Notes: generated by a model from the letters alone, not told the origin. A DNA stretch of 64,000 nucleotides from an uncultured Phycisphaerales bacterium (GCA_964464495.1 CAYXGI010000002.1:10558-74557), one strand, 5' to 3'. Counted from the stretch's first letter, positions 38,928-60,638 are shown. Made by a program: numbers and translations.

Positions 38928-40091
38928 TTATTCCACGTTTCTCAAAGACGTGACGATGTTGAGCCGCGATGCGTTGAAAGCCGGGATCAAACCTCCGGCA
39001 AAACCAACGACCAGAGAAGCGCCGATCCCGAGACCGAGGATGACGGGCCGCATGATGATCGGGATCGACACGCCGCGAAGGGCCAGTTCCTGATTGGAGA
39101 AGGAGATGATCACGAAGGCGGCCACACAGCCGAGTGCTCCTCCGAACAGACTGAGCAAGACCGACTCTGCGAGCACGAGTCTCAAAACGCGGGGCCGTCC
39201 AAATCCCATGGCTCTCAAGATGCCGATCTCCTGCGATCTGTCGTAGGTCGACATGCTGATCGTGTTGGCGATGCAAAGAAAGATGACGAGCGCCGAAAAG
39301 ACGATCACGTACCCCGCGTACTTGAGCATGTCGTCGAGATCGTCGAGAGCCTGATCGAGGGCGACCTGAGCCGGTTCGGTGTGCGTCTTGATCGGAAAGT
39401 CGAGGTTGTCGATCGCGGTGCACACTCTCTCGGCGTCCTCGCGATCGGCGATCTTGACGTAGATCTGGTGGGAAACGCCCCGCGACCCGTCGACGTCCTG
39501 CAAGAAGACCCTGTCCGCCAGGATCACGTTGCGAAACGCTGGATCTCGCGGGGTAAAGGCGCTTGCCATGAAAAGGCTCAGCCCCTCGAAATCGGCCATG
39601 GCGAATTCGCCATCTTCTTTCCAGACGTACTGGTCACTGTATTTGGTGACAATATCGATGCCCAGCAAAGCGCCGTTGCGCTTGGAGCAAAATTTCTCCC
39701 ACGCCCCGGGTTCCAGATCGAACTCGATCATGTCCCTCAGGTCGTCTTTATCGATTCCTGCGATCTTGACCAGACCGCCACCCGACGAGGCTCAGTGATT
39801 CATCTTGAAGAAGATCGGCGCGGCATTGACCACGCCGGGGACTTCACGCTCGATACGGCGCGCCATGTCCTCGTCGCCGGGCATTGAACTCTTGGTCGGT
39901 CAGTAGACGTCTTCCTCGTTGACCACGAGGATCGTGCTCGCGGCGCCGGCGACCATCTGATTGCGGCTGTCGAAGATCGTCGTCAGGTAGGTAACGATGA
40001 AGACCGCCACCCCCACTCCGAAAATCGTCAGCATGGTCCTCACCGGGTTGCGCCACACGTTGCGGATGACGTAACGCCAGAATTTGAACAT
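38928..40091 (-). CDS. MacB/FtsX-like ABC permease with two in-frame TGA codons, candidate double selenoprotein (U64, U100), 387 aa
   Basis: ORF-track pieces 39900..40091 and 38928..39731 are in one frame, interrupted only by TGA at 39900-39902 and 39792-39794. Joined: ..NEEDVY-U-PTKSSMP..FFKMNH-U-ASSGGGLV..; hairpins follow both TGAs. Confidence 0.85.
39760..39778 (-). promoter_or_regulatory. Candidate bacterial SECIS for TGA 39792-39794
   Basis: Minus strand GCGGTCT-GGTCA-AGATCGC: 7-bp stem (one G-U); GG-initiated loop at +21. Confidence 0.7.
39865..39884 (-). promoter_or_regulatory. Candidate bacterial SECIS for TGA 39900-39902
   Basis: Minus strand ATGCCC-GGCGACGA-GGACAT: 5 bp with one mismatch; GG-initiated loop at +22. 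Weak stem. Confidence 0.5.
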
Positions 40092-40166
40092 GGCTTTGCC
40101 TTTCGTTTTTCCCGGCAGCGATTTGTTCGACTCGGCCGCCGGAGCCCATCGATGGTTCGTTGAGGA

Positions 40167-40859
40167 TCACGGGGCTTTGACTTCCTCTTTCAAAACACCC
40201 TTGTCGAGGTAGAGGATCCGGTCCGCGTAGGAGGCGGCGCGCGCATCGTGGGTCACCATGACCAGGGTCTTTCCAAATTTCTGATTGAGCTCTTTCAGAA
40301 GGTCGAGAATCTCCGTCTCGCTCTCCGCATCGAGATCGCCCGTCGGCTCATCGGCGATGATCACCTTGGGATCGGTCACGATGGCGCGCGCGATGGCCAC
40401 CCGCTGTTCCTGCCCGCCCGACAACTGCCGCGGATAGTGATCGGCGCGCTCGGCGATTCCGACAGCTTTCAGTGCCGTATCGGTGTGCGTCTTGCGCTCT
40501 GCGCGCGACAGGGGCAGGAGCAAGAGGGGCAGTTCCACATTCTCCCGCGCCGTGAGAACGGGAACGAGGTTGTAGAGCTGGAAGATGTAGCCGACGGAAC
40601 GGGTCCGCCACTGAGAGAGTTCGCTGTCGCTCATGGAGGAGAGGTTCTCGCCTGCCACGGTCACCGAGCCGTTCGTCGGCGTGTCGATGCCGGCGATCAG
40701 GTTGAGAAGCGTTGTCTTTCCCGATCCCGACGGTCCCATGAGAGCAAGGAATTCGCCCTCCGCCACGTCGACGTTTACGCCCCGGAGGGGGCGGATCTCT
40801 TCGCTGCCGCGGCGGAAGACCTTTGTCAGGTTCTCAGTCCTGACCATCGTTTGAGTCAT
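40167..40859 (-). CDS. ABC transporter ATP-binding protein (MacB/LolD-type)
   Basis: [31 protein letters not shown]. Confidence 0.96.
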
Positions 40860-41958
40860 TGTTTTTCCTCATGAAGCGGATTCGGGCGATCATTTCTGGG
40901 TAGAGGTTTTCCGAGGGGGCGTGGATCTTGACCTTGACCTGGATCGTGTTCTTCTTGAAGTCGGCCATCGGTTCGAGGCGTATCACTCGCCCCTCGTAGG
41001 CGCGGTCGAGTTCGGCATCGGTGAAGACCTCCACCGTCTGTCCCACGAAGACACCGCCGATGTTTTCCTGGCGGACGTCGACGCGCACCTGGAGATCGTT
41101 GGGATCATAGAGGCTGACGATTCGCGGATTCTGCGCCGCGATCCATGTGCCGGGCGTGACGAAACGTTCGAGGACGGCGCCGTCGAAGGGGCTCGTCACC
41201 GTCGCGTAGGAGAGCTGATTGCGCGCCAACTCGACATCGGCGAGGGATCGGTTGTAATCCGCCTCTGCGGCCTCGATGTCCTCGACGCGACTCCCCTCCT
41301 CTTTGAGAAGCAGTTCCTGCTCGAGCGCGTTGCGCCGCGCCAGCGACGTTTTGCAGGCGGCCTCGTCCCTGTCGAGATCCTCTCTGCTGACCGCACCCGA
41401 TGAAAGAAGAGACCGCGTGCGCTCGAGGATCTTCTTCTTGAGGGTCACGTCCGAGTCGAGCGCTGCCAGGTCTGCCCGGGCCTTCTCGACTTCCTGAACG
41501 CGGAAGCCCGCCTTGAGCCGCTCCATGTTGGCGCGTGCAGATCCGGCTTCCGCCTCGGCCCGCCTGAGGGCGTCGGTCAGATCCTTCTCGTAGAGCCGGG
41601 CAATGACATCGCCTTTCTTGACACGCGATCCCTCGAGCACGAGGAGCTCGTCGAGACGTCCCGGAATAAGGCTGCTCACCACCACGGGATGGTAAGAGGG
41701 GACCTCGATCCAGCCGCCCTCGGTGAACGACTCGGGTTCAGGCTCCTCCGGTTCGGGGTTGACAGGATTGTTCCCCACGGCGGCGACCGGGTCCTTTTGC
41801 ACGGTCTCCTCATTTGACAGGGGCCAGAAATCGGCAGCCAGATAGCCGACGACCAGCCCGGCCGGAAAGAGCAGGATCACGATCAAAACCGGAAAGCGCG
41901 CCTTTTTCCCGGTCGTGCCGTGGTTGATCTTGAGATCGTTGAGGTCGACTTCGCTCAT
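40834..41958 (-). CDS. Efflux membrane-fusion (periplasmic adaptor) protein
   Basis: N-terminal TM; lipoyl halves (VKKGDVIARL, VTSPFDGAV); long alpha-hairpin; start set at ATG 41958. Confidence 0.92.
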   Translation of the reverse strand: MSEVDLNDLKINHGTTGKKARFPVLIVILLFPAGLVVGYLAADFWPLSNEETVQKDPVAAVGNNPVNPEPEEPEPESFTEGGWIEVPSYHPVVVSSLIPGRLDELLVLEGSRVKKGDVIARLYEKDLTDALRRAEAEAGSARANMERLKAGFRVQEVEKARADLAALDSDVTLKKKILERTRSLLSSGAVSREDLDRDEAACKTSLARRNALEQELLLKEEGSRVEDIEAAEADYNRSLADVELARNQLSYATVTSPFDGAVLERFVTPGTWIAAQNPRIVSLYDPNDLQVRVDVRQENIGGVFVGQTVEVFTDAELDRAYEGRVIRLEPMADFKKNTIQVKVKIHAPSENLYPEMIARIRFMRKNNDSNDGQD

Positions 41959-42156
41959 GACTGTTGACTTCCTACCAAAATAGCAGGGTATTCTATTAGC
42001 CTCTAATTCTAAAAACAACTTCTATAACTTATTAACCACGTAAATATCCTGAAGCAGTCAAGCGCTTCGCCATGTGGGGTGCGCAATTGTGCTCGTCATC
42101 GCGAAAAGCTAAGGTGTTGTTACCGAGAGAAATCAGCAGCATGGAGACCATTGACA

Positions 42157-43983
42157 ATGACTCGAATTCCTGGAACCTCGAATAATACCTGTCTCGTCTC
42201 CTTGTTGGCAGTTCTTTTCCTGTCTCTTCTGATGGAGAGTCTCCCCGCGCCGGAGGAGGACGACTCTGCCCGACCTTTCTTCCACAACGTGGCAACCGAG
42301 ACCGGCGTGGCTCGACATCCCGCTCAGCGCGTCGCTTTCGTCGACCTCAACGGCGACCACTACCTCGATTGCGTGGTAGGGTGCATCTGGAAAGACAATT
42401 CAACCCATTGCTACTTGAATCGCGCGGCTGATAAGAAGGACTCTCTTCCGATTTTTTCCGATTTCACCGCGGAGTCGCGGATCGCGTGGGATGCGAAAAA
42501 AAAATCCAATCGCTCGGCGTCTGTCATGGTCTTTGCCGACGTGGACAACGACGGAGACGTTGACGCTTTCTCCGGCATCGATTGTTCAGCAGGCGCCAAA
42601 GAAAAGGGCAGCGACATTCAAACAGTCAGCGCGATCCTGCTCAACGACGGCGAGGGGCTATTCGTTCTCGGCACGAAGTCTGGTGTAGGCGAACACCCGG
42701 CAACGACCTGTGCGGCCACCTTCTTCGATGGGGACAACGATGGGCTCATCGATCTCTTCGTGGGCAACTGGTACAGGGAGTACGGGTCATCGCTCGACAG
42801 CTTTCAGGATCGGCTCTACAAGGGGATCGGCAAGGGACGATTCAAGGAGATCACCGAGAAAGCAGGTATCGAGACCGCACAAACCGCGGGGATGCGCGAA
42901 AGCTCGAAGCCGGTCTACGGCGCCGGCCACTGCGATTACAACAACGACGGTCTTCAGGATATCCTCGTCTGCGTTTACGGCAGGCAGTGGAACTTCCTCT
43001 GGAAAAACAAGGGCAAGGGCATCTTCACCGACGTTGCCGCCGCGACCGGATTTGACGGAGACACGATCACCCACGGCCGCTACCCCGAATCGATCAAGGA
43101 GTACTTCAGAACCCAGCGCGGCATCGAACGCGAAGACGAGTCGCCCTTTCGGTCGAATGGCAACACCTTCAGCGTGGCGCCCGCCGACTTCGATTGCGAC
43201 GGAGACATCGATCTCTATCTCGGCGAGATCACCCACGCCTGGGCGGGCGACTCATCGGACCGATCGAGCCTTCTCGTCAATCAGGGGGCCGAGATGGGAT
43301 TCATCTTCGAACGGCATGCCGACGCACTCAGGCGCGAACACACATCGCCCGACAAGTGGAACCAGGGCGACATGCACGTGGCATGGATCGATTTCGACAA
43401 CGATGGGCTCCAGGACCTGCTCGTCTCGTCAGGCGACTACCCCGACGGACAGTACCTCCGGCTTTTCGCGCAGCGCGACGATCACTCCTTCGAGGACATC
43501 ACCGGAGCGTGCGGATTCGACTGGGAAAGTTCATCGGCCATCTCGGTGGGCGACTTCGACCGTGACGGCGACGAGGATATCCTTGCCGGACAATCATGGA
43601 TGCGCATGCCGCCTGAGCGCCGCAAGGGGGACTATCCGGCTCCGGCTCTCTTCCGAAACGATGTGGGCAACAGGAACAACTGGATCACCATCCAGCTCAG
43701 GGGAAAGGGCAAAGGCGGCGCCAATGCGCTCGCCATCGGAGCACGGATCGTGGTCGAGGCCGGCGGCCGCGTTCAGATGCGCGAGATCCGCGGCGGCTGC
43801 GGCCACGCGGGCCAGTACGATCCTCCCGAGGCTCATTTCGGCCTCGCCAGGGCGGAGTCGATCGATCGAATCACCGTACACTGGCCAAACAGAAAGCAGA
43901 CCGTCACCACAGTGCAGAATATCGAACCAAACCGCTTGGTGCGCATCGCCGAAACCGGCAATCTGACAGAGCTCCTGCCCTGA
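42157..43983 (+). CDS. CRTAC1-like FG-GAP repeat protein with ASPIC/UnbV domain
   Basis: D.NGD/D.DNDG..D repeats; LFRND.GN.NNW..IQL.G..AIGARI.V..HFGL. Confidence 0.92.
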   Translation: MTRIPGTSNNTCLVSLLAVLFLSLLMESLPAPEEDDSARPFFHNVATETGVARHPAQRVAFVDLNGDHYLDCVVGCIWKDNSTHCYLNRAADKKDSLPIFSDFTAESRIAWDAKKKSNRSASVMVFADVDNDGDVDAFSGIDCSAGAKEKGSDIQTVSAILLNDGEGLFVLGTKSGVGEHPATTCAATFFDGDNDGLIDLFVGNWYREYGSSLDSFQDRLYKGIGKGRFKEITEKAGIETAQTAGMRESSKPVYGAGHCDYNNDGLQDILVCVYGRQWNFLWKNKGKGIFTDVAAATGFDGDTITHGRYPESIKEYFRTQRGIEREDESPFRSNGNTFSVAPADFDCDGDIDLYLGEITHAWAGDSSDRSSLLVNQGAEMGFIFERHADALRREHTSPDKWNQGDMHVAWIDFDNDGLQDLLVSSGDYPDGQYLRLFAQRDDHSFEDITGACGFDWESSSAISVGDFDRDGDEDILAGQSWMRMPPERRKGDYPAPALFRNDVGNRNNWITIQLRGKGKGGANALAIGARIVVEAGGRVQMREIRGGCGHAGQYDPPEAHFGLARAESIDRITVHWPNRKQTVTTVQNIEPNRLVRIAETGNLTELLP

Positions 43984-44142
43984 TTCGAGGCTCTCTCCAG
44001 GCCCAATTTATAGCCCTCTCGCCGGCCTTCGTGTGGTAGAATTCATCAGTTGGCACAACGTGAAAGCCTGAATCCATGACAGTACGGCAAATATCTTTTC
44101 AACCGATTATCGGTGAAACGAATTCGTAAAGGAGAATCCACG

Positions 44143-45588
44143 ATGCGGCACCTGTATTGGAAAATCATCCTGGCATTGACAGCGTTTCTTCTCTGTTCGG
44201 CCCCGGCAGGGGCGGTTTACACGTGGGAGCACACCGCATTCGTCGAAACCGCGATCCAGAGCTCAATGGGCCGTCTCATCGCCCATCCCACCGATCCGAA
44301 CACCCTCTTTCTGGCCACGTCCAACATGCCCGATATCCTGGGGGGCACTCTCGATCCGGCCGACGGTCTCTGGATGACCTCCGACCTGGGCCAGACGTGG
44401 ACAACGATCAACGACTCGGTCCTCCTCACGACCTACATCATTCTCGACATCGCCGTCTGCCAGGCGAATCCCGCTGTGATGTACGTGGCCACGATCGAGG
44501 AAGGCATCTTCAAGAGTGTCGACGGCGGTCAGAACTGGACCGACGTGAGCGGCTCTTTCCAGTACAGCGGCGAGACCTTCCCCAACACCAAGTGGGGCGT
44601 CATGGCCGTGGCAGTCGATCCGACGAACGCCGACAGGGTCTACATCAGCGTGGCCCAGATCGGCGAACTCGATGTCTTCAATCTCGCCCCGAGCCACCCC
44701 GGCTTCTTCTACAGCACGGACGGCGCCACCACGTGGCTGGAGAACAACAGCGGACTGCCTCCCCGCTACGACGATATCTGGGATGGAACGTCGCATACGT
44801 CGGTGGCCGGCAGCATCGTGGTCCTCCCCCAGAAGCCGAACCTCGTGATCCTCGGTATGGCCGACCTCGAGGTCAACACGGCGTTTTTTTTCAACAAGAC
44901 GGCCGAGACGCGCGGGAGGGTCTTCGCGAGCAACACGTCGGGTCAAGGAACCTTCTTCGAGGTCAGCGGCGGATTGCCGACTCAGATCAAGCAGAGCCCC
45001 GAGATCAGCGGCAGCCTTGCGCGGGTCTCTTCGTCGACCATGCTCCTGTCGCACACGACCGGGTCCCAGCTCGGTGTCTGGGGCTCGCACGTGAGTCTCA
45101 CCTTCGATGTCAGCCTCGACGCCACGCTCACGGTCACGCGCAACAAGGGACTCTTCTTCACGCCCAACGGCTATTGGCAGGAGAGAAACAGCGGCCTCCC
45201 CCACGTGGCGAACTGGACGGACAACACGTCGAGCACGAACAGCACGATCAAGTTTGTCGACACCTACAACATGGGCAACGTGGCCGTGGGCAAGGGTGAG
45301 TGGAACAACGTGTGCCTGTCGGGCAGCAACCGCTGCGACATGGGCGACGCCACGACGAACAATACCAAAGTCTACGCCACGGTGAACTCCGGTTTGCCGT
45401 CGTGGCTCAAATCATGGGACTCCGGCCTCGACACCTCCCCCACTTACGGGTACACCGAGGCGAACGCAACCATGATCACCTTCAATGCTGATATGTCATA
45501 CGGTTTTGCCACGGTGCGCTGGTCGGACGACGATCAGACATCGCTCTTCAAGGACGACAACGGCGTCTACAGGTTCAGGGTCTGGTAG
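44143..45588 (+). CDS. Secreted BNR/Asp-box (sialidase-like) beta-propeller protein
   Basis: Signal peptide; TSDLGQTW, SVDGGQNW and STDGATTW Asp-boxes. Confidence 0.82.
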   Translation: MRHLYWKIILALTAFLLCSAPAGAVYTWEHTAFVETAIQSSMGRLIAHPTDPNTLFLATSNMPDILGGTLDPADGLWMTSDLGQTWTTINDSVLLTTYIILDIAVCQANPAVMYVATIEEGIFKSVDGGQNWTDVSGSFQYSGETFPNTKWGVMAVAVDPTNADRVYISVAQIGELDVFNLAPSHPGFFYSTDGATTWLENNSGLPPRYDDIWDGTSHTSVAGSIVVLPQKPNLVILGMADLEVNTAFFFNKTAETRGRVFASNTSGQGTFFEVSGGLPTQIKQSPEISGSLARVSSSTMLLSHTTGSQLGVWGSHVSLTFDVSLDATLTVTRNKGLFFTPNGYWQERNSGLPHVANWTDNTSSTNSTIKFVDTYNMGNVAVGKGEWNNVCLSGSNRCDMGDATTNNTKVYATVNSGLPSWLKSWDSGLDTSPTYGYTEANATMITFNADMSYGFATVRWSDDDQTSLFKDDNGVYRFRVW

Positions 45589-45600
45589 GAGAACGCAGAT

Positions 45601-47841: not shown

Positions 47842-48028
47842 CCTATCGGTCCCTCCAGATGAAATTGCATTCCGCTCCGCTCGACACAACACTCCTTTTC
47901 CAATGGTCCTGTTAGATAGACTTGAATTGATAAGGTTCCTCATCCCAAAATAAAAACGTGGAAAATAGTCACGAAGGCCAACACGTGCGATCAATCGCAA
48001 AGCGCGCAATCAATCACAACGCGCGCGA

Positions 48029-48814
48029 TCAATCGCCGAAAAGATTGCCCAGTTTGCCCAGAACCGATCCCTCTCCCTTGCTGCTTCCGCCCGCGCTCGG
48101 CGCGCTGGCCAGGATCCGATCAGCCATGCGTGAAAAAGGCAGACTCTGGAGCCACACCGTGCCAGCCCCCCTCAGAGTGGCCAGAAAGAGCCCTTCGCCG
48201 CCGAAAACCATGGTCTTGAGGCTCCCGGCGCGTTCGATCGAGTATTCGATCCCGGGAGTGAAACCGACGAGGCAGCCCGTGTCGACCCTGAGCGTCTCGC
48301 CTGCCAGTTCCCGACGGATGATCGTGCCGCAGGCGTGGATGAAGCACATGCCGTCGCCGAGCAGCTTCTGGAGAATGAACCCCTCACCGCCGAAGAAACC
48401 GGCGCCGAGGCGCTTGTTGAAGGTGATCGAGATCTCGGTACCCATGGCGGCGCAGAGAAAAGCATCCTTCTGGCAGATAATCTCCTCACCGATGACGCCC
48501 ATGTCGACAGGGATGATTTTTCCCGGGTAGGGCGACGCAAACGCCACGCGGCGCTTGTCGCCCCCATCGTTGGTGAAATGGGTCATGAACAACGACTCGC
48601 CGGTGATCATGCGTTTCCCCGCGCTGAAGAGCTTGCCCATGAAACCCTCGTCAGGTTTCGAGCCGTCGCCCATGCGGGCCTGGAATGTAATGTCCTCCTC
48701 CATGTAATTCATGGCACCCGCTTCGGCGATAACTGTTTCGCCGGGATCGAGTTCCACCTCGACCATCTGCATGTCATCACCGATGATATCAAAATCAACC
48801 TTGTGGCACTTCAT
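48029..48814 (-). CDS. TIGR00266/AIM24-family protein
   Basis: [54 protein letters not shown]. Confidence 0.93.
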
Positions 48815-48849
48815 CGCGTCTCTCCCTTTTCGTTTCATGGTCAGGCAAC

Positions 48850-48879
48850 GAGAAAACGGCCTTCACAGGCCGTTTTCTC
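48850..48879. terminator. Hairpin terminator downstream of the DUF4242-like gene
   Basis: GAGAAAACGGCC-TTCACA-GGCCGTTTTCTC perfect 12-bp stem. Confidence 0.75.
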
Positions 48880-48923
48880 TGTTTCTCGCACCCTGCGCGT
48901 AATCGTTTGCGCCCTGCGCGAAT

Positions 48924-49178
48924 TCAGGAAACGAGGGTTTCTGCGGCGTGCTCCTCGACAGCAATGATCCTCTCGTAAGGAGTTCCCACCTTCTCGAACA
49001 GGCCCGCCAGTTCATCCTTTGACGACGCTGTCCAGCAACACATGCCGAATCCTTCTTCCCAGTTCAGGTAGGAGCGTTCGAACGTGGCACCGCTTCCCCT
49101 TGAAGCGTTGACGACGTCGGCTCATCCCTTTTTGAGTTCGGCTTCCGACATGGTCGGCATGGTGATCACAAACTTCAT
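48924..49178 (-). CDS. DUF4242-like small protein with in-frame TGA, candidate selenoprotein (U19), 84 aa; absent from the ORF track
   Basis: GGAGGTG RBS; MKFVITMPTMSEAELKKG-U-ADVVNASRGSGATFERSYLNWEEGFGMCCWTASSKDELAGLFEKVGTPYERIIAVEEHAAETLVS; TGA at 49122-49124; hairpin follows. Confidence 0.75.
49091..49107 (-). promoter_or_regulatory. Candidate bacterial SECIS for TGA 49122-49124
   Basis: Minus strand CGCTTC-AAGGG-GAAGCG: perfect 6-bp stem, loop at +21. The loop starts with A, not G. Confidence 0.55.
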
Positions 49179-49303: not shown

Positions 49304-49304
49304 G

Positions 49305-51694: not shown

Positions 51695-52092
51695 CCCGCC
51701 ACCACCTTGACCAGCACCTTGCGCGTACGGGGCCCGTCAAAATCGCAGAAGTAGACACCCTGCCAGGTGCCGAGCCGCATCCGGCCTTCCTCGACCGGGA
51801 TAACCGCTGTCGCCCCCATGAGGGACGCTTTCACATGGGCGGCACTGTTTCCCTCGGAGTGGGCATACCCCCCCTCCCAGGGAACAATGCGGTCGAGCAC
51901 GTTGATGATGTCGTGCTGAACCGACGGATCGGCATTCTCGTTGATCGTCACGCCCGCCGTGGTGTGCGGCACGTAGACGTAGCACAGACCGCTCTCCACA
52001 CCGCTCGCAGCCACCACCGCGCCGACCTGAGCGCTGATGTCGACAAAATCGGTACGGCCCCCCGTGCGGATCGAAAGACGCTGGGAGATCAT
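51691..52092 (-). CDS. YjbQ/UPF0047-family protein (copy 2)
   Basis: PHTTAGVTINENADPSV, EGNSAAHVKASLMG, LGTWQGVYFCDFDGPR. Confidence 0.93.
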   Translation of the reverse strand: MISQRLSIRTGGRTDFVDISAQVGAVVAASGVESGLCYVYVPHTTAGVTINENADPSVQHDIINVLDRIVPWEGGYAHSEGNSAAHVKASLMGATAVIPVEEGRMRLGTWQGVYFCDFDGPRTRKVLVKVVAG

Positions 52093-52324
52093 GCTCCCCC
52101 CTTTCTCGAAGTAGAACTAAAAACCTGATAGAGTGTTCCTGATGAAAGCCACGCCGAACTCATGGCCGCGTCTCAGACCGGTCTTTCCCAGACGGCGATG
52201 AGTGGATCTTGAACTCTCTCGCGGCAATGATAGCCTGACAAGGTCGGTTTTTACAGAATCACTGGAACAGTGCGGGTCCGAAAAAAGGATTTCTTCGATC
52301 TGCCGGCCCGCGAGAGAGAGGCGC

Positions 52325-54445
52325 ATGATGAAGAAAATCACACTCCACTTTCTTGTCCTCTTCGTTCTCCTTCCCGCTTTTTCGTTGGGCGAGGAGTCGG
52401 ATGCGCTCGACGAGGCTCTCGGCCTCGTGGGAATGGCGCGCGCCGACCTGGGCTGGACGCCCAAGGCGTGGTGGCCGCGCTTTCCTGTGGCGCCTTACAA
52501 GCTGCGTGCCTTCGATTCCCTCTTTGCGGCGCCTCTCGATACGGTGGCTTTCACGCGCGCTCTAAGTGCGACAGCCTACAGAAATCTCGATCCCGCCGAG
52601 CTCGACAAAAACCAGGGACGCGCGAGTCGCAACCTCTTCCTCGCGGTGCAAGCACTCGGCATCGATCCCAAGTTCGGTGGATTTCGTGGTTATGCAACCA
52701 ACCTCCTTGCGCCTGAGAAACCGCTCGACGAAGCGATTCTCGATCTGATCGCGGCCTCGGGCCATCCCACGAAGATCCACACCTTCGGCATGGACCTCCC
52801 CTATCCGACTCCACACGAGGGTCTCGCGGCGCAAGTGGGCTCCCTACCCGCCCCGGTGAGCAAGATCGTGGGGCGCCTCGTGCTCAACATCGTGGACGCT
52901 CATCACTGGGCGGAACTCGCCTTTCGAAATGTGGACGGAAAGGACAGAACCAAGGTGGCGCGCCGTTTCGACGTGGGCGAGGAGATGATCGATGCCTACG
53001 ATTTCGCGCCCGAGATCGACGACATGGCGCGCACCTTCGACGAGGCAAGCCTCTGGTATGCGGCGCAGAAGTGTGTGCAAGGCCTCGACGACGCGCGCGT
53101 GGCCCTCGCGGCGGTCGACCTCGGGGAGATTGCGGCATTGAGCTTCGACTGGGAGACCCCCTGGGGTTGGATCAGGATCCGCGGCTCGGGCAACGATTCG
53201 GTCGACGGCCACGATGCACTGCTCCTCGTCGATCTCGGCGGCGATGACAGGTACCTGGGAGGCGTGGCCGCGTCCACGGCGGACCGTCCGATCGGACTCG
53301 TTCTCGACATGGGCGGCAACGACTTCTACGAGTCGAATGAGCCCGCCCAGGGCGCCGGGCTCTGCGGTGTGGGGCTCCTGATCGATGTGGCGGGCGACGA
53401 CACCTACAAGGGCAGCCGCTACGCGCAAGGCGTGGGACAGTTCGGACTCGGCCTTCTTGCCGACCTAGGCGGCAATGATATGTACTACAATGGCTTCAGC
53501 GGACAGGGATGCGGCTACTTCGGGATCGGCCTCCTCTTCGATTGCGCCGGAAGCGATATCTATTCTCTCATGGCTGACGGACAGGGACTGGGCGGCGTCT
53601 CCGGTGTGGGCGTTCTGGCTGACCGGGATGGAAACGACATGTACACCGCGGTGCGCGAACACTCGGTCACCGGCCGGCCCTCCTATCATTCGCCGGAGCT
53701 CGATGTGGGCGTTTCCAATGCCCAGGGCTGCGGCATGGGCCGCCGCGGCGATGGCGCCGACGGCCACTGCTGGGCGGGAGGGCTGGGCGCCCTGCTCGAC
53801 GGCGGGGGTGACGATATCTACCGTTCGGGAAACTGGGCGATGGGCACGGGGTACTGGTTCGGGATCGGCCTTCTTCACGACCGCAGCGGCAATGACGTCT
53901 ATCACGGTGTGGCTTACACGCAGGCCACGGGCGCTCACTTCTGTATCGGGGTCATGATCGACGAGGCGGGCGACGACCAGCACCTCGCCGAGGAGAACTC
54001 CACGCTCAGCATCGCGTGGGCCCACGATTTCACGATCGCCATCCTGATCGACAGCGCCGGCGACGACCTCTATCGTGTCAACAAGAACGGCCTCGCCTAT
54101 TCGATCAACCGGAGCGTGGCGCTCCTCGTCGACGGCAGCGGCGACGATACCTACGAGAGCGGCGATCTGGTTCGTCCGGGATTCGCCCAGAACAACACGA
54201 GTTTCCGTGCACGCGACGGGGTGTCGACCTACTTCGGGCAGACCACGTCGATCGGCTGCTTTCTCGATCTGGACGGACTCGATTCTTACTTCGGTGGTCT
54301 GCAGAACGACACGCACTGGCTCGATCCCGACGACTCGCCCAACTGGATTGATCGAAACTTCTCCGTCGGTGTCGATCGCAGCGATGGCCGGGTCGACTTC
54401 AGGCCCACCCCGGTCCGGCCACCGTCTCGACCGCGCCGCAAGTAA
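52325..54445 (+). CDS. Secreted hypothetical protein with about 12 G-x-G-L-L-x-D-x-x-G-x-D-x-Y repeats
   Basis: Signal peptide from ATG 52325/52328; repeats read directly in the translation. Confidence 0.85.
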   Translation: MMKKITLHFLVLFVLLPAFSLGEESDALDEALGLVGMARADLGWTPKAWWPRFPVAPYKLRAFDSLFAAPLDTVAFTRALSATAYRNLDPAELDKNQGRASRNLFLAVQALGIDPKFGGFRGYATNLLAPEKPLDEAILDLIAASGHPTKIHTFGMDLPYPTPHEGLAAQVGSLPAPVSKIVGRLVLNIVDAHHWAELAFRNVDGKDRTKVARRFDVGEEMIDAYDFAPEIDDMARTFDEASLWYAAQKCVQGLDDARVALAAVDLGEIAALSFDWETPWGWIRIRGSGNDSVDGHDALLLVDLGGDDRYLGGVAASTADRPIGLVLDMGGNDFYESNEPAQGAGLCGVGLLIDVAGDDTYKGSRYAQGVGQFGLGLLADLGGNDMYYNGFSGQGCGYFGIGLLFDCAGSDIYSLMADGQGLGGVSGVGVLADRDGNDMYTAVREHSVTGRPSYHSPELDVGVSNAQGCGMGRRGDGADGHCWAGGLGALLDGGGDDIYRSGNWAMGTGYWFGIGLLHDRSGNDVYHGVAYTQATGAHFCIGVMIDEAGDDQHLAEENSTLSIAWAHDFTIAILIDSAGDDLYRVNKNGLAYSINRSVALLVDGSGDDTYESGDLVRPGFAQNNTSFRARDGVSTYFGQTTSIGCFLDLDGLDSYFGGLQNDTHWLDPDDSPNWIDRNFSVGVDRSDGRVDFRPTPVRPPSRPRRK

Positions 54446-54470
54446 GTGAGGACAGAAAGGCACTGACACG

Positions 54471-55043
54471 ATGGGAAGAATGGCCATGAAATATTTACCG
54501 CTCACCAAGAAACGGTGGAAGGACTTCGAGAAACTCTTCGGCCCGCGCGGCGCCTACAGCGGCTGCTGGTGCATGTGGTGGCGCCTGAAACGGAGCGAGT
54601 TCGAAAAGCAGCAAGGAGAGGGCAACCGTCGCGCCATGAAGGCGATCGTCGAATCAGGAAAGATCCCGGGCATCCTCGCCTATTCGGGAAGCGAGCCGGT
54701 GGCGTGGTGTTCGGTGGCGCCAAGGGATGACTACGCCTCGCTGAACCGCTCCAGGATCCTCAAGAAACTCGACGACACGTCGGTCTGGTCGATCGTCTGC
54801 TTCTTCGTCGCAAAGGAGTACCGAAGGCAAGGTGTGATACAGGGACTCATCGAGGGCGCCGTCGACTATGTGCGCCGCTGCGGCGGCCGGGTGATCGAGG
54901 CATACCCGACGGTGCCCAGGAGCGACAAGGTTCCACCCGTGTCGAGTTTCATGGGCTTTCCGGCTCTGTTCGAGCGAGCGGGATTCGCCGAATGCACCCG
55001 ACCCTCTCCGAGCAAGCGCATCGTGCGCTACACTATCGAATAG
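54471..55043 (+). CDS. GNAT-family acetyltransferase
   Basis: GCWCMWWR, PVAWCSVAPR, WSIVCFFVAKEYRRQGV, IEAYP, FERAGF. Confidence 0.92.
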   Translation: MGRMAMKYLPLTKKRWKDFEKLFGPRGAYSGCWCMWWRLKRSEFEKQQGEGNRRAMKAIVESGKIPGILAYSGSEPVAWCSVAPRDDYASLNRSRILKKLDDTSVWSIVCFFVAKEYRRQGVIQGLIEGAVDYVRRCGGRVIEAYPTVPRSDKVPPVSSFMGFPALFERAGFAECTRPSPSKRIVRYTIE

Positions 55044-55099
55044 AGATCGGCTCCGAGCTCTCGACTATAAGAGGGGAATGTCGGGATGAGGCGCGGTTC

Positions 55100-56932
55100 T
55101 CAGAAAATCTTCTCCACCCGATGAGTTCTTCCGGCGAGCAGCGATCCCTCGTCGATGAGATTCTTCGAGAGGTAGATAAGGCCTTCGTCGGAATGCGTCT
55201 CCGTGACCTTGACGTGCAAAGACCTGATACCACCCAGCCAGCGCCGGCCGTCGGCCACGTAGACCAGGTCGCCGACTTCGGCCGCCAGACGATCGAGCAT
55301 CTTCTCCGTTAGGGCGATTCCATCGAGTCCATCTCTCGGTTCGAGGCGCCCCACAACATCCCTTCCCGGCGTTTCGTTCACCTTGCCGCCCTTGTATTTC
55401 TCCTTACCGCGATTGATCGTCCCGATCACCAGGCCCTCGATCTCGGCAAGCGGCTTCGGGCGCGTGAACAGGGTGACAGTCACGCCGATGGCAAGCGAGC
55501 CCGCGAGCCCGTATAGAGCTCGCATGAACTTGAATCCGCCCGCAGGATCGACGCCGTGCGCGAAGGGTGAAATCAGGACCGGCCAGCGGATCGATGCCGC
55601 CACGAGAATCAGGCCACCGGCGAGGGTCCAGAAGGCGGCGCGCGGCGTGTAGCGTTTCCAGAAAGCGCCGAGCACGATGGCGACCACCATGGGCGGCGTG
55701 ACCGCGGCGGTGAACCATGCATGGGCCTGGTAGATCGAGTTGAATGACGCGAAGAGCGGCACGAGCGCGATTCCCACTCCGGCCGATGAAAGGGAAACAA
55801 TCCGCGCCACCTTGAGGTAGTGGCGGTCAGGCGCGGAGCGCTTGAAGTAGGGTTTGTAGATGTCGTTCACGGTCACGGCCGACACCGCGTTGATCAACGT
55901 GTCCACCGTCGACATGAGCGCCGCCGTGAGCGCTGCCATGACAAAACCAAAGAGGCCCGGTACGCAGACCTTGTCGGCCACGGCCACGAAGATGTGGTCC
56001 GCGTTTGTACCGGCGGGCAGGATGCCGGCCGACACCATCGACCGGCCGAGCCAGCCGGCATTGGCGATCGCCAGGGTGGCGAGCGGCATGAGAACGAGGA
56101 GAAGGACGGTGAAGGCTTTCTTCCCCTCGCGCGCGCTTTTCAACGAGAGGAAGCGCAAGATGAATCCCTGGTTCATCATGTAGAGGGCGATGTTGTTGGC
56201 CACGCCGTCCTGCCAGAATATGCCCGAGAAGTGGAAGGAGTGCGGCTCGTTGAAGGACGCGAAGGGAAGTCTGTGCGCCGGCGGCAATCCCGCCCAGAAA
56301 GAGTCCCACCCCCCGAGTGCGTGCAGACCGAGGCCGAAGAGGATGAGCCCTGCCACGAGGAGGATCACCCCCTGGGCGAGATCGGTCATGATCACCGACG
56401 TTTGCCCCCCGGCGGTGACATAGACCGCGCAGACCACGGCCACCACCACGGCCGACCAGAATGGATCGGTTCCGAGCATCGCCTCGAGCGCCACACCCAT
56501 GGTGAAGAGGTTGATGCCGATGTAGCCCACCATGTAGAGCATGATGATGATCGTGGCCATGAGCCGGGTGGGGCTGTCGAATCTTTTTTGAAAGTACTCG
56601 GGAATGCTGACGCACCGGGAGAAATAGATGATCGGGAACCACCCGAAGAGCAGGATCGTCATCACGATCCAGTCGTTGAGATAAGTCATCGACGACGACA
56701 TGCCGTAACGATAGCCCGCCGCCGAGTACTTGATGAAGCTGTACGAGCCCACAATGGACGCCACGTAGCTGAACGCCACCAGCCACCAGGAGAACCGCTG
56801 GCCGCCGAAAAAGAAGTCCTTCGTGGAACGGGTGAATCGCGCAAAGAATGCCCCGAAAGCGAAGATCGCCACGAAGTAGCCCACGATGATGCCGTAGTCG
56901 AGCTTGGTGCCGATGATGGTCGTCGTTTCCAC
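55100..56932 (-). CDS. Sodium:solute symporter (SSS family) with cytoplasmic C-terminal extension
   Basis: DFFFGGQRFSWW, SIPEYFQKRF, YVTAGGQTSVIMTD, AALMST.D..IN. Confidence 0.92.
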   Translation of the reverse strand: METTTIIGTKLDYGIIVGYFVAIFAFGAFFARFTRSTKDFFFGGQRFSWWLVAFSYVASIVGSYSFIKYSAAGYRYGMSSSMTYLNDWIVMTILLFGWFPIIYFSRCVSIPEYFQKRFDSPTRLMATIIIMLYMVGYIGINLFTMGVALEAMLGTDPFWSAVVVAVVCAVYVTAGGQTSVIMTDLAQGVILLVAGLILFGLGLHALGGWDSFWAGLPPAHRLPFASFNEPHSFHFSGIFWQDGVANNIALYMMNQGFILRFLSLKSAREGKKAFTVLLLVLMPLATLAIANAGWLGRSMVSAGILPAGTNADHIFVAVADKVCVPGLFGFVMAALTAALMSTVDTLINAVSAVTVNDIYKPYFKRSAPDRHYLKVARIVSLSSAGVGIALVPLFASFNSIYQAHAWFTAAVTPPMVVAIVLGAFWKRYTPRAAFWTLAGGLILVAASIRWPVLISPFAHGVDPAGGFKFMRALYGLAGSLAIGVTVTLFTRPKPLAEIEGLVIGTINRGKEKYKGGKVNETPGRDVVGRLEPRDGLDGIALTEKMLDRLAAEVGDLVYVADGRRWLGGIRSLHVKVTETHSDEGLIYLSKNLIDEGSLLAGRTHRVEKIF

Positions 56933-57133
56933 CTATCCGCCTCCGGAAGCGACGATCTGCCAGACGAGGTGGCCGCAGAAATAAAAGGCGAAGATGGAAA
57001 TCACGAAGTAAGTGGTGAGCCGGTCGTAAACGTTCTTCCACGAGTAATCACCCGACCGCCAGGCGATCACCAGCCCCGCAAGGAAGATGATCCCCCCCAC
57101 CGCATACTGATAAACAAAACTCTCCCAGTTCAA
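56933..57133 (-). CDS. Small two-TM membrane protein abutting the SSS gene
   Basis: Two hydrophobic helices; stop codon directly adjacent to the SSS start; TTG start. Confidence 0.75.
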   Translation of the reverse strand: MNWESFVYQYAVGGIIFLAGLVIAWRSGDYSWKNVYDRLTTYFVISIFAFYFCGHLVWQIVASGGG

Positions 57134-57157
57134 AGGTAACTCCCGATCAGCACCCCT

Positions 57158-59098
57158 CTATGAAAGGCCGAACACCTCCACCACCATGACAGCCACCCCC
57201 ATCAGGGCCGACCCCGCGATCAGGCCGGAGCTTATCGATTCTTGATTCTGGACCACCACCTCGTTGACCCGCTGTTCGGGCCGGGGATAGAGCCTCGCCA
57301 CGAGCCAGAACGCAAAGGCACCGAGAAACATGGAGAGACAGATCGTGAAGGGAATCATGAAAGCCAGTCCGATCCCCACCGGCGTGAGCGGAAACTTTCC
57401 CTTGGCGCGGATCCGGATGAGCTCGAGAACGATCCCGAGGAGCCCGCCGATCACCGTGGCGTAGATCGCCGATTCAGGAAGATTGCTGAGCCCCTTGGTG
57501 AGGACCTCGGCCACGGCCTTCCAGACCGTGGCAGCCGGATAGGGAAATTGCTCGTTGATCAATCCCGCCGGGTTGTTTCTCAGGAAGAGCGGGTAGAAGA
57601 CGAGCACCGAGAAAATCGCACCCGAGAAGGCGCCGATCACATGGCCGATCGCCTGGAGGCGCGGCTTGGCGCCGAGCATGTAGCCGGGCTTGATGTTCTG
57701 GATCAGGTTCGACGCGCTTCCCGACACCTCGGCGGTGATCCCCGCCGTGGCGATGTTGGTCGTGATGTTACCCGGCGCCAGAACACCGTAGGTGAGCTGC
57801 GTGAGCTTGCCGAGCGGTCCTGTCGGTGTGATCGAAGTGATCGCCGTGGCATTGACGCCGATCAGCGTGAAGATGAACACCATGGGGATCGCGATGATCC
57901 CCATCAAGAAACTGACCCCGAAGAACCAGTGGGCGATGAACACGATGTATGCACCCACGATGAAAGCACCCACGACCGAGACCTTGACGGGCAGCTCGAT
58001 GTGGGCGAGGCAGTCCTCTTTGCGCTTGTTCTTTTTCCCGAAAATCCCGCCGAATACGCTCAGGAGGACCTGGGGCTTGGCAAAGAAGCTGAGCAGCGAC
58101 GCCGTGGTCATCATGGCCACACCGCTCCAGAGCGACCACTTCGTGATCTCTGTGAAGCCCACACTCATGACGCCGTCAGCGCTCACCGTGGAAACGATGT
58201 CACCCGCCCCGACCATGATCGGCGCGAGGATGCAGTAATTGACCACCCCCCCCACGAGAAGCGACAGCCCCGCGTTGATCCCGATCAGCCCCCCCACGCC
58301 GAACATGGCGAGGTCGAGGGTGGGACGCACGGTGAGCTCCTTGAGCGGGATGCCATTGATATTCGGCATCCACCAGCCGAACTTCTCCACGAGACAGTAG
58401 TACCACTCGTCGAGGAGTTCTGGGAGTGCAAGGAATCCGGCCTTGATCGTTGCGAAGATCGAGTGCGACTGCCAGAGCTTGATCAGCGCACCTGCCAGAC
58501 CGGTGATCAGGAGAAGCCGTGCCGGCAGGTGGGCCCTATGATTTTTCGTCTCGCCCGACTCCTCACTGTGCAGGGTGTCGAGAACCACTCCGGCCGCGCG
58601 CCCCTCGGGAAAGGGCATCTGCTCCTCGTTGATGAAACGTCTCTTCAAGGGGAATGCAAACAGAACGCCCATCACGTTCAGACCGATGAGCCACATGACC
58701 ATCTGCCACCAGGGAACGACCGAATCGGTGATGATCATGTAGGCCGCCATGCTCGCGATCATGGGAGCGTTCATGTACCCCGCGTTGCAGGCGATCGACT
58801 GGAGAATGTTGTTTTCCAGGACATGGTAGTTTGCGCCGAGGCCGATTCTGCTGAGCGTCTTGAAGATCACGAAGGCGAGGATCACCGCCGTGATCGCCGT
58901 GCCGAGCGCCCAACCCGTCCTCGCCCCGATGTAGAGGTTGCAGATCGACAGGACACCGCCGAGCAGGAATCCGCTGATCACCACGCGCGGCGTGAACTGG
59001 CGCACGTCGCCCTGGTAGACGTTTTCGAGCCACCAGCGATCCTTCTCCTCGGACGACATGGTCTGGATCTGTTCGTCGGTCAGCTGTTTGATCACCAC
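57158..59098 (-). CDS. OPT-family oligopeptide/metal-chelate transporter
   Basis: NLYIGARTGW, ENNILQSIA, FPEGRAAG.VL, GPLGKLTQL, KPGYMLGA.PR.Q, SGLIAG; start approximate. Confidence 0.93.
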   Translation of the reverse strand: MVIKQLTDEQIQTMSSEEKDRWWLENVYQGDVRQFTPRVVISGFLLGGVLSICNLYIGARTGWALGTAITAVILAFVIFKTLSRIGLGANYHVLENNILQSIACNAGYMNAPMIASMAAYMIITDSVVPWWQMVMWLIGLNVMGVLFAFPLKRRFINEEQMPFPEGRAAGVVLDTLHSEESGETKNHRAHLPARLLLITGLAGALIKLWQSHSIFATIKAGFLALPELLDEWYYCLVEKFGWWMPNINGIPLKELTVRPTLDLAMFGVGGLIGINAGLSLLVGGVVNYCILAPIMVGAGDIVSTVSADGVMSVGFTEITKWSLWSGVAMMTTASLLSFFAKPQVLLSVFGGIFGKKNKRKEDCLAHIELPVKVSVVGAFIVGAYIVFIAHWFFGVSFLMGIIAIPMVFIFTLIGVNATAITSITPTGPLGKLTQLTYGVLAPGNITTNIATAGITAEVSGSASNLIQNIKPGYMLGAKPRLQAIGHVIGAFSGAIFSVLVFYPLFLRNNPAGLINEQFPYPAATVWKAVAEVLTKGLSNLPESAIYATVIGGLLGIVLELIRIRAKGKFPLTPVGIGLAFMIPFTICLSMFLGAFAFWLVARLYPRPEQRVNEVVVQNQESISSGLIAGSALMGVAVMVVEVFGLS

Positions 59099-59152
59099 GG
59101 TTCGCTCCCATTCTGACAGGAAAGGCAAAGATCGATCACGTCGAGGATCGGA

Positions 59153-59974
59153 TCAATGTTCGGCAGTTTCATAGCGCGCATAGAAGGCGCTGTCCTCGTT
59201 CCTGATGCGCGTCAGAAGTTCCTCGTCGAGGCTCTCGCGCCACTTGAAGTTGGCGCTCTCGAAACGCTCCGGAATAGAAGCCGCGAATCGGTCGCCGAAG
59301 CGCAGGCCGCAGTCGCCGGCCAGGCGCCGGAGCAGCGTGCGCGGCTCGTTGCAGAGTTCCTCGTACGACGCTCTGAAGACGCGGCCCTCGAGCTCGGCCG
59401 CCTCCTTCTCGATGGCGAGGGTTGCCACGCGAAACTGGCGCGCCGCGGTCACGGCATGAGGCAGATCGACCATGTCGCGCCACCCTGGGATGTAGACGCC
59501 GAACCAGCCCCCGCCCCGTCCCGTGCGCTTGACCTTCCGGTTGAGTGTGGAATTCACCACGGCGCGCCAGTCGCGCGACATGTGAACGAAGAGCGCGTCG
59601 GGAAAGATGGCGTTGATCCACTGCATGCGGAGCGAGAGGCGGGGGTACTTGGCAACGAAACGGTCGGCCTTGCGCAGGCGGAGCACCCGTTCCACGAGTC
59701 GCCTGTACCAGTCGATCGCCGCGGGGGGGGCGTCGGCCGCCCCCATGGTGTCTTCCATGCCCTTCTTGAAGAAATCCCAAACGGATTGGGCCTCCACGGG
59801 GAAATCGGGCTTGAAAAGTCCCGTCAGGAGATGGGCCACCCCCGGAAGGCGGGGCAGCCGCTTGTTCATCGGCGTGAGATAACCCACGTCGTGATGGCGC
59901 CCCAGAAGCCGGTAGAGAAGGGTTGTGCCGCTCCGGTGCGGTCCCACGATAAAAATCGGTCGGTCGACGGTCAT
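59153..59974 (-). CDS. Sulfotransferase family protein
   Basis: PIFIVGPHRSGTTLL 5'-PSB motif; K.PR, FPDALFVH..RD.RAV..S; YEELC..P; GGAGGA RBS. Confidence 0.9.
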   Translation of the reverse strand: MTVDRPIFIVGPHRSGTTLLYRLLGRHHDVGYLTPMNKRLPRLPGVAHLLTGLFKPDFPVEAQSVWDFFKKGMEDTMGAADAPPAAIDWYRRLVERVLRLRKADRFVAKYPRLSLRMQWINAIFPDALFVHMSRDWRAVVNSTLNRKVKRTGRGGGWFGVYIPGWRDMVDLPHAVTAARQFRVATLAIEKEAAELEGRVFRASYEELCNEPRTLLRRLAGDCGLRFGDRFAASIPERFESANFKWRESLDEELLTRIRNEDSAFYARYETAEH

Positions 59975-60085
59975 CGTTCCTCCGGGAACCAAGATTTCTT
60001 TCGGACCACTATATCGAATTGAACTGCCCCGGCAAGGGAAGGTCCCTTTCAATTCCGATTCTGTTCGTGATATAGTTTTTTCACT

Positions 60086-60120
60086 CCGACAGGCTTTGTC
60101 GGACCGACAGGCTTTGTCGG
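60086..60120. repeat. Tandem duplication of the 17-bp palindrome CCGACA-GGCTT-TGTCGG (18-bp period)
   Basis: Two exact copies at 60086-60102 and 60104-60120, between divergent genes. Confidence 0.9.
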
Positions 60121-60153
60121 ATTGAAACCGATCTTAACGGCTGGGAGGTCTCC

Positions 60154-60441
60154 ATGGGTGATGAATCGGAAATCGCGGTTCTTGAAACCGCGTCCAATCC
60201 CTTCGTGGCGCAGATGATCGCCGAAGCGCTCAAGAGTCATGGCATCGCGGCCTATGTGGAGGGGATCTCGCTGATCGACGAATTCGCCATGTCGCAGAAG
60301 GCGATGGGACTGACCAGCGTCGACATTCAAGTCCACCGCGACCGTCTCGACGAAGCGCGCGAGATCCTGGCCGCCCTCCGTGAGGCGGGAAAGCTCATGG
60401 CCGACGAAGCCGAGAAGGAAGACAAGGACGATCACGACTGA
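60154..60441 (+). CDS. DUF2007-like (putative signal-transducing) small protein
   Basis: GGGAGG RBS; A.N.F.AQMI..AL.SHGI.A.V...IQV......EAREIL. Confidence 0.85.
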   Translation: MGDESEIAVLETASNPFVAQMIAEALKSHGIAAYVEGISLIDEFAMSQKAMGLTSVDIQVHRDRLDEAREILAALREAGKLMADEAEKEDKDDHD

Positions 60442-60638
60442 TCGTCGTCGCTCGCCGCCTCTGCGGAACCGCAACCAGTATCGAGGCCACAATCGGAGGC
60501 CGGCTTCTTTTCTCCGCCCACGGCGGGACCGGGAGCCATTCATGTGGCCACGCCCATGCGGGGAAGAACGACGCGCTGCAGCAGAATCCAGACAGCGATG
60601 ATTACCGCGACTGTGAGCAGTCCTTTGAATAGTTGCAT
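60432..60638 (-). CDS. Small single-TM peptide with in-frame TGA, candidate selenoprotein (U33), 68 aa; absent from the ORF track
   Basis: GGAGG/AGGA RBS; MQLFKGLLTVAVIIAVWILLQRVVLPRMGVAT-U-MAPGPAVGGEKKPASDCGLDTGCGSAEAASDDDQS; TGA at 60540-60542. Confidence 0.55.
60514..60526 (-). promoter_or_regulatory. Candidate bacterial SECIS for TGA 60540-60542
   Basis: Minus strand CCGCC-GTG-GGCGG: 5 G-C pairs; GU-initiated loop at +19. Confidence 0.45.

Follow-up and report, generated by a model that had tools for sequence, protein, structure and literature searches.

Three uncatalogued gene families with in-frame UGA codons, very probably read as selenocysteine, in a marine Phycisphaerales bacterium

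Recoding of the Escherichia coli fdhF type combines an in-frame UGA codon with a stem-loop in the coding sequence, the loop lying 16-37 nt downstream and often beginning with G (the Zhang and Gladyshev model as given in PMC13188914). The generic model of the bacterial selenocysteine insertion sequence (bSECIS) has a loop of 3-9 nt, an upper stem of 4-16 bp, a G in the first two loop positions, a spacing of 16-37 nt and a minimum free energy of -7.5 kcal/mol or lower (PMC13188914). A table of 119 prokaryotic selenoprotein families was published in 2026 (PMC13188914) and its sole ATP-binding cassette (ABC) permease is SaoP (NF040733). The DNA studied here is a window (the whole stretch analysed, 64,000 nt) from an uncultured Phycisphaerales bacterium (GCA_964464495.1, CAYXGI010000002.1:10558-74557). 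It corresponds to positions 10558-74557 of contig C2 of assembly G000, which is 5.29 Mb in 116 contigs and 90.6% complete. The G+C content of the window is about 60% and the genome is that of a marine Phycisphaerales. Three genes of the window contain in-frame TGA codons: a MacB/FtsX-type ABC transporter permease with two (U64 and U100), a small DUF4242/SCO4226-like protein with one (U19) and a single-helix membrane peptide with one (U33). All four TGAs had been reported in the first-pass annotation and were confirmed, every one on the minus strand.

The four TGAs are very probably genuine selenocysteine (Sec, U) codons, in three selenoprotein families that the catalogues do not hold. They are read in this way because they are conserved in relatives and aligned with Cys in distant homologues, and not because of the hairpins that follow them. 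All three genes show the classic comparative signature of an in-frame UGA with coding conservation on both sides in orthologues, and on this basis the three families can now be called selenoproteins. The 119-family table includes no MacB/FtsX-type permease, no DUF4242 protein and no such peptide (PMC13188914), and the three families matched no NCBIfam selenoprotein model. The peptide and four of its homologues gave chance-level NCBIfam matches only (E 0.09 or worse). A literature search found no paper on DUF4242 selenoproteins. The features concerned are as follows.

38928..40091, minus strand: ABC permease gene, 387 aa, with U64 and U100; open frame from the ATG at 40091 with TGA read as U
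39900..39902, minus strand: putative Sec codon U64; aligned with Cys, TGA conserved
39792..39794, minus strand: putative Sec codon U100; aligned with Cys, TGA conserved
48924..49178, minus strand: DUF4242/SCO4226-like gene (Pfam PF14026), 84 aa, predicted Sec at residue 19
49122..49124, minus strand: putative Sec codon U19, context ELKKG-U-ADVV; TGA conserved
60432..60638, minus strand: membrane peptide gene, 68 aa, single helix, predicted juxtamembrane Sec at residue 33, Cys in the tail; TGA conserved
60540..60542, minus strand: putative Sec codon U33, motif LPRMGVAT-U-M; TGA conserved, Cys in one homologue

By the ordinary bacterial route, Sec-tRNA(Sec) would be delivered to the four UGAs by SelB, which would be tethered to the coding-sequence stem-loop just downstream of each UGA. 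The genome resembles the E. coli-type system in having selA, selB, selC (as its 5' 54 nt) and selD, and in the Cys found at the Sec position of homologues. It differs in having two SelB, two SelA and two SelD genes. The elements in the window also have no sequence similarity to those of E. coli, the U64 element is nearly absent in the family and the AAGGG loop after U19 has no early G. The mechanism is textbook bacterial; what is new is the three uncatalogued families and the finding of a Planctomycetota lineage that is rich in selenoproteins and has SelB in duplicate. Like SaoP, the window permease would be a Sec-containing ABC transporter permease subunit. Unlike SaoP, it has MacB_PCD and FtsX domains and two putative extracytoplasmic Sec residues, and it stands in an operon of HlyD-ATPase-permease-permease order and not in a Sao locus. 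NF040733 was not among its 11 NCBIfam matches at E<=1. It also resembles MacB/LolCDE-type (FtsX-fold) transporters, both in its MacB_PCD and FtsX domains and in having an ATPase encoded apart, a pair of permease genes and an upstream HlyD-family adaptor. The difference from these is a predicted Sec pair in place of the Cys pair of the planctomycetal subfamily.

The permease had both domains of a MacB/FtsX-type permease. A periplasmic MacB_PCD match (PF12704, residues 19-152) covered both TGAs with 27.8 bits against a cut-off of 27, and the C-terminal FtsX match (PF02687, residues 262-379) scored 67.9 bits. U64 and U100 sit in the extracytoplasmic MacB_PCD domain, 36 residues apart. Comparison was made within the family, comprising G000 and its relatives G017-G020 (five genomes), and in wider samples of 42 genomes of the order and 401 Planctomycetota genomes. 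The permease carried exactly two TGAs in all five family genomes (identity 59-89%), and at U64 a TGA was found at the identical codon in 10 of 10 genomes inspected. Fourteen distant homologues were aligned (24-30% identity). The U64 column was the Cys of NRYCPxTS in 13 of them and the U100 column was the Cys of SNCRASLD in the same 13. The one exception, L058, was without both cysteines, not just one. Outside the family, the 401-genome sample contained two TGAs in 14 more genomes, belonging to several other Planctomycetota families, one TGA in five and none in the rest. TGA positions were checked in five of the outside-family genomes and four matched both U64 and U100; L090, the fifth, had its second TGA one residue later, giving a C-U motif. 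By these alignments a conserved extracytoplasmic Cys pair of the planctomycetal permease subfamily is replaced by a predicted Sec pair. The two residues may form a U64-U100 diselenide, with a selenylsulfide in the relatives that have a single TGA. A Sec pair replacing a Cys pair 36 residues apart would, if a diselenide, be a rare natural example. The first-pass annotation had expected such genes to be misread by standard annotation, and public protein collections do hold only truncated pieces of them. Because this permease is common among Planctomycetota, its gene now stands as broken in many genomes.

SCO4226 is a nickel-binding protein. The small protein of the window resembles DUF4242/SCO4226-like proteins in its size of about 80 aa and in a PF14026 match above the cut-off, which spans U19 (residues 11-74, 31.6 bits against a gathering cut-off of 28.5). 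It differs from them in the predicted Sec19 and a CCW motif, and the NCBIfam SCO4226 nickel-binding model did not match it significantly (E=0.066). The gene was found in six genomes with 46-99% identity and one TGA each, at the same codon in all six. In an exhaustive protein search the full-length distant homologues had Cys at the U19 column in four cases out of seven and W in three. This search also returned truncated pieces of 48-55 aa starting after the TGA. A word-based search gave just one truncated piece and a PDB sequence search gave spurious antibody matches only. Sec19 probably works with a nearly invariant Cys47. In the W-bearing homologues (P0008, P0010 and P0015) the W sits exactly at the Sec/Cys column. 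It could be a true Trp (TGG), or the gene caller may have chosen genetic code 4 and translated a TGA as Trp.

Homologues of the membrane peptide were found at 11 loci in a species-genome scan, in at least six phyla. The hosts were Phycisphaerales, Holophagales, Chthonomonadaceae, a deltaproteobacterial metagenome-assembled genome (MAG), a Planctomycetales MAG, two Anaeromyxobacter isolates and two Nitrospirae MAGs. A TGA was present in 10 of the 11 and a Cys codon at the same position in one. This one was Planctomycetales 71-10, in which the frame continues past the Cys (…GVPT-C-MGGSCAVSP…). The read-through tail had a Cys shortly ahead of the stop in all 11. Two relatives from the order, G019 and G020, had their TGA at this codon as well. 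A word-based homologue search with the peptide found nothing. In other phyla the peptide gene lies near DUF302 genes (just upstream; L077, L082 and L084) or rhodanese/YgaP-like genes (L080 and L081). These neighbourhoods hint at a role in sulfur or selenium handling.

The first-pass annotation had named the absence of tRNA-Sec or SelB from a near-complete genome as a reason to drop the Sec reading, and had asked for selABCD to be located. The genes selA, selB and selD are present and tRNA-Sec is cut by a contig end. The selA and selB genes adjoin on C30 and a second selA is on C69. Two selB genes were found (C30:212-2095 and C53:30659-32542), both full length, 36% identical and each keeping the SECIS-binding SelB winged-helix domain at its C-terminus. 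The selD gene likewise occurs twice, and one copy bears the usual in-frame TGA (…ACAG-U-AAKL…). An intact tRNA-Sec scored 68-79 bits in 39 of the 42 genomes of the order and was not detected in the G000 assembly by the same scan. BLAST with the same-genus copy placed the 5' 54 nt of tRNA-Sec, anticodon UCA included, at the very end of contig C69 (C69:24855-24908, 100% identical), 1.8 kb downstream of the second selA. By this match the gene is cut by the contig end and not absent. Because it is cut after 54 nt, standard tRNA finders report no selC for G000. ARAGORN at default settings found no tRNA-Sec in G000, and a lowered threshold gave hundreds of false UCA calls. The Rfam tRNA-Sec matches in G000 were rejected as they are tRNA-Ser, and Rfam found nothing near selB or selD. 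The matching downstream flank of the tRNA-Sec locus lies near the end of contig C34, the last 120 bases of which consist of low-complexity runs (GGGGGGGAAAAAAACC…AATTTAATTTTTGG…). This low-complexity end is probably an assembly artefact beside the missing half of the tRNA-Sec locus.

The hairpins following the four TGAs are listed below, with loop positions counted from the TGA.

39760..39778, minus strand: predicted SECIS hairpin of U100, GCGGUCU-GGUCA-AGAUCGC; perfect 7-bp stem (GCGGUCU/AGAUCGC), loop at +21
49091..49107, minus strand: hairpin after U19 of the DUF4242-like gene, CGCUUC-AAGGG-GAAGCG; 6-bp stem (CGCUUC/GAAGCG), loop at +21
60512..60528, minus strand: predicted SECIS hairpin of peptide U33, CCGCC-GUG-GGCGG; 5-bp stem (CCGCC/GGCGG), loop at +19
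39856..39883, minus strand: weak candidate SECIS for U64; imperfect 2+2 bp stem, 8-nt loop starting GG at +22

Apical loops had been placed at +22, +21, +21 and +19 by the first-pass annotation. Those of U100, U19 and U33 were found there. The loop of U64 did not hold up, having a 2+2 bp stem only with a C.A mismatch; the best perfect stem at this site is 3 bp and an alternative stem has its loop near +30. The U64 family consensus fold is weak with broken pairs, the five family genomes having mere remnants of a hairpin, and the site falls short of the generic bSECIS model, which calls for a stable upper stem of 4 bp or more. Strong hairpins of 7-8 bp were found at the U64 site in other Planctomycetota families (AUCCCCGG-GGA-CCGGGGAU; CUUCCUG-CGGC-CAGGAAG), and there was no common-register consensus of U64 elements across the family and the other-family homologues. 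The U100 element passed all generic bSECIS constraints (7-bp stem, loop GGUCA, spacing 20 nt, hairpin energy -9.0 kcal/mol). Its six inner pairs (CGGUCU/AGAUCG) were nucleotide-invariant, including synonymous sites, across nine genomes with protein identity as low as about 36%. It encodes GGLVKI(A/E)G(I/V)DK in all Sec-type permeases, where Cys-type homologues have unrelated residues. This invariance marks an RNA constraint inside the coding region, with the RNA element clearly shaping the protein sequence. The U33 element has a GUG loop, a 5-bp stem and a spacing of 18 nt. Its bare 5-bp stem fell short of -7.5 kcal/mol in the strict test and its extended fold reached -16.1. The hairpin is kept in the G019 and G020 orthologues (CCGCC-GUG-GGCGG and UCCGCC-GUA-GGCGGA). 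The U19 apical stem was retained in four to five of six orthologues, with the loops ACGGG, CACGGGC and AGA. Rfam found nothing in the region at E<=10.

The chance level of such hairpins was taken from 2614 TGA stops (of open reading frames (ORFs) of at least 200 aa with a good codon-usage score) and 20000 internal TGG/TGC/TGT codons. Perfect stems of at least 5 bp, with loops starting at the same four positions, came after 15.3% of these stops and after 16.2% of these internal codons, a frequency that fell to 7% for stems of at least 6 bp and 3% for at least 7 bp. By the binomial, three hairpins in four sites have a p of about 0.013. Folding energies over 50 nt put the four sites between the 28th and 82nd percentile of internal coding sequence. 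The first-pass annotation had leaned on the shared hairpins, and had stated that equal frequency after ordinary TGA stops would count against it. The outcome was half of this, with equivalents after about 15% of stops and a mild excess at the four sites, so the hairpins lost the weight given to them. The shared hairpin spacing is a mild enrichment and not proof. Strict bSECIS constraints held for 6% of the true stops and 8% of the internal codons, against 32% at 22 further confirmed Sec sites. The confirmed hairpins had no shared sequence and a differing register, and MAFFT was unable to align them in structural register. Sec sites do show an excess of hairpins, but the case cannot be built on these; TGA conservation and Cys/Sec pairing discriminate. 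The lesson for method is that at 60% G+C hairpins after UGA are nearly uninformative.

A codon-usage screen of G000 for TGAs with coding signal on both sides gave 434-1065 candidates depending on threshold, of which the set of 434 was used. The candidates were mostly same-frame neighbours or shadow frames. Windows of 51 aa around 116 candidates, joined as two queries, were searched against three family-level relatives (about 60% identity). At least 29 TGA sites in 28 genes had matches that spanned the TGA and themselves held one TGA, at about 50-90% identity to the relatives. This number is a lower bound, since the peptide escaped the screen whichever threshold was set, the DUF4242 gene escaped it under the stricter threshold, and Sec near either protein end is invisible to it. 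Known kinds among the 29 sites were SelD, three HdrA-like proteins, a VPGUxxT-type thioredoxin-like protein, and TlpA/redoxin-like, deiodinase-like (SSYT-U-PPF) and rhodanese-like proteins. Other families were seven paralogues of the …YQFDAD…C-x-C-U-GG type, two FG-GAP proteins with U-C, two with GSYC-U-G, two with U-G-x-T-C-x-YSW, two cytochrome c-like proteins and two beta-helix proteins. Six more plausible sites were left unconfirmed (G-U-PYC, W-U-PYT, a SelW-like protein and three others). Ten such proteins were scanned against NCBIfam and nine had no match to any selenoprotein model. The tenth, a multihaem cytochrome, had a sub-threshold match to TIGR04315 (18.4 bits against a cut-off of 375), a model counted among the selenoprotein families (PMC13188914).

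On this evidence the window belongs to a Phycisphaerales family with a large predicted selenoproteome: in an assembly that is 90.6% complete, 28 genes have at least 29 Sec codons between them. An unusually large selenoproteome, and Sec codons in genes other than classic redox selenoenzymes, had both been proposed in the first-pass annotation and are borne out. The largest bacterial selenoproteomes described are those of a Methylomirabilota MAG (63 genes) and of the Delta 1 symbiont of Olavius algarvensis (57 genes or more), and the phyla named are mainly anaerobic (PMC13188914). G000 resembles these selenoprotein-rich bacteria in having dozens of predicted Sec codons per genome and expanded paralogous selenoprotein families. 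It is unlike them in its lower bound of 29 sites, and Phycisphaerales (Planctomycetota) are not named among the enriched, mostly anaerobic lineages (PMC13188914). A further difference is that many G000 candidates have a signal-peptide-like N-terminus (judged by eye) and no known selenoprotein model. At least 29 Sec codons in an unlisted lineage bear on the idea that a large selenoproteome is a trait of anaerobes.

The YQFDAD paralogues, about seven in number, are on C7, C15, C29, C36 and C57 (for example C7:87412-88482), and their in-frame TGA is conserved in relatives. They have the motif …YQFDAD…C-x-C-U-GG(T/N)SDGG or C-U-SN(D/E)PDGG, a common C-terminal domain and N-termini that look signal-peptide-like by eye. 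One member was scanned and matched no NCBIfam model. The FG-GAP-like repeat proteins with the U-C motif (…SYG-U-CIG…) are at C30:57706-59022 and C11:83168-84493. TGA paralogues of the FG-GAP-like type number at least 7-9 in each of the relatives G017, G018 and G020, forming an expanded candidate selenoprotein family. One minus-strand TGA on C12, in an FG-GAP-like repeat (candidate 'C12 - 55959', 55959 bases from the 3' end of the contig plus strand), was rejected. It looks like a nonsense mutation or error, as dozens of the relatives' repeats have a sense codon, probably Trp.

Several points weigh against reading the four TGAs as Sec codons. All evidence for selenium in these proteins is drawn from sequence. 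U100 alone of the four sites passes the strict bSECIS implementation, the U64 hairpin is very weak in G000 and the four closest genomes, and the U19 loop AAGGG departs from the bSECIS rule in having no G in its first two positions. Three DUF4242 homologues have W, not C, at the Sec column. The peptide tail past the TGA is poorly conserved save for SAVGG, encoded by the hairpin, and one Cys. The tRNA-Sec is incomplete in the G000 assembly, and for most of the 29 census sites the alignment of the relative's TGA was taken from match ranges and not from inspected alignments. The TGAs could be ordinary stops, nonsense mutations or assembly errors in pseudogenes or split genes, with hairpins arising by chance at 60% G+C. 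The assembly is a 116-contig draft, the four folding energies are unremarkable and equivalent hairpins follow about 15% of ordinary stops and internal codons alike. This explanation is very improbable and already contradicted by the comparative data: the same codons are TGA in independent assemblies (5 to 19 or more for the permease, 6 for the DUF4242 gene and 10 genomes for the peptide), the protein is conserved on both sides with Cys at the aligned position in distant homologues, and TAA or TAG was never found in place of these TGAs. The W in the three distant DUF4242 homologues would suit a TGA reassigned to a standard amino acid (Trp or Gly, genetic codes 4 and 25) or read through without selenium. 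TGA is however the most frequent ordinary stop in G000, ending 970 of 1646 ORFs of at least 500 aa (59%), and hence has not been reassigned. For each of the four sites homologues carry Cys at the aligned position, the genome has the full Sec apparatus, and no UCA-anticodon suppressor tRNA besides tRNA-Sec was found at default stringency. Reassignment or selenium-free readthrough is therefore scarcely credible. For the peptide alone, the TGA might be a true stop giving a 32-aa product, with the hairpin a 3' RNA structure and the open tail fortuitous. The tail is poorly conserved even between G000 and a same-genus relative, and open frames of 21-35 codons are not rare at this G+C. Against this stand the Cys codon of Planctomycetales 71-10 at the exact position with the frame continuing, and the tail Cys followed by an early stop in 11 of 11 homologues from phyla as distant as Nitrospirota and Myxococcota. 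The hairpin is also not a terminator because there is no U-run behind it. A true stop in the peptide is quite improbable. Sec codons at all four positions remain the preferred reading. What was observed is the set of TGAs, how they are conserved and paired with Cys, the machinery genes, and the hairpins with their chance frequency; Sec insertion itself, the diselenide and what the three proteins do are inferred.

The first-pass annotation had further taken the hairpins as a lineage-specific SECIS class. Apical loops of many confirmed G000 Sec sites do start 17-21 nt after the UGA, the U19 loop and the U64 element fall outside the generic model, and the family has two to three SelB paralogues. 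A class of this kind is nonetheless improbable and the claim was not upheld. A spacing of 16-37 nt and G-first loops belong to the generic bacterial model (PMC13188914), which the U100 element fits, as does the peptide element in loop, stem length and spacing. The U100 element is common across the phylum, nucleotide-invariant in distant Planctomycetota, and the TGA-bearing peptide occurs in at least six phyla. Other confirmed G000 sites have loops near +27/+28, so the spacing is not uniform. Taken together, the earlier observation was mostly right (partly confirmed) and its main inference was right for reasons beyond its own evidence, while its interpretation as a whole is partly supported.

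Full-length SelB paralogues (E<1e-70) numbered two to three in each of the five family genomes. Elsewhere in the order there was mostly one SelB per genome, with two in G024, G025 and G031. With the terms used, a literature search turned up no paper describing several SelB paralogues in a single bacterium. It is conceivable, if rather unlikely, that the two to three divergent paralogues split the SECIS population between them, for example loops at +17-21 and at +27-28, or degenerate elements of the U64 type. SECIS sequences would then be less constrained, which could have opened the way to an expansion of selenoproteins, many with signal-peptide-like N-termini and including a transporter with a probable diselenide. 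The duplication of SelB in exactly this Phycisphaerales family offers a testable handle on the evolution of SECIS recognition.

The neighbours of the permease gene form an apparent operon in the order HlyD-family gene, ABC ATPase, U64/U100 permease and second permease.

40834..42018, minus strand: HlyD-family membrane-fusion protein gene (Pfam HlyD_D23/HlyD_3)
40167..40859, minus strand: ABC ATPase gene (Pfam ABC_tran)
37721..38923, minus strand: second permease of the pair (Pfam MacB_PCD + FtsX), without the Cys/Sec pair

In a pairwise alignment with the first permease, the second had no Cys at either the U64 or the U100 position. A shadow ORF of 108 aa (39844-40170, minus strand, GTG at 40170) overlaps the true permease N-terminus in a different frame. 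It was rejected as a frameshifted N-terminus, the true start being the ATG at 40091 in frame with the FtsX part. The window neighbours of the peptide gene are a DUF2007 gene and an EEP-family phosphatase gene. An ATGA overlap at 60543 was considered as the start of a downstream 164-aa gene and rejected. This ORF (60049-60543, minus strand) has no Pfam family and is a shadow frame opposite the real DUF2007 gene (60154-60441, plus strand).

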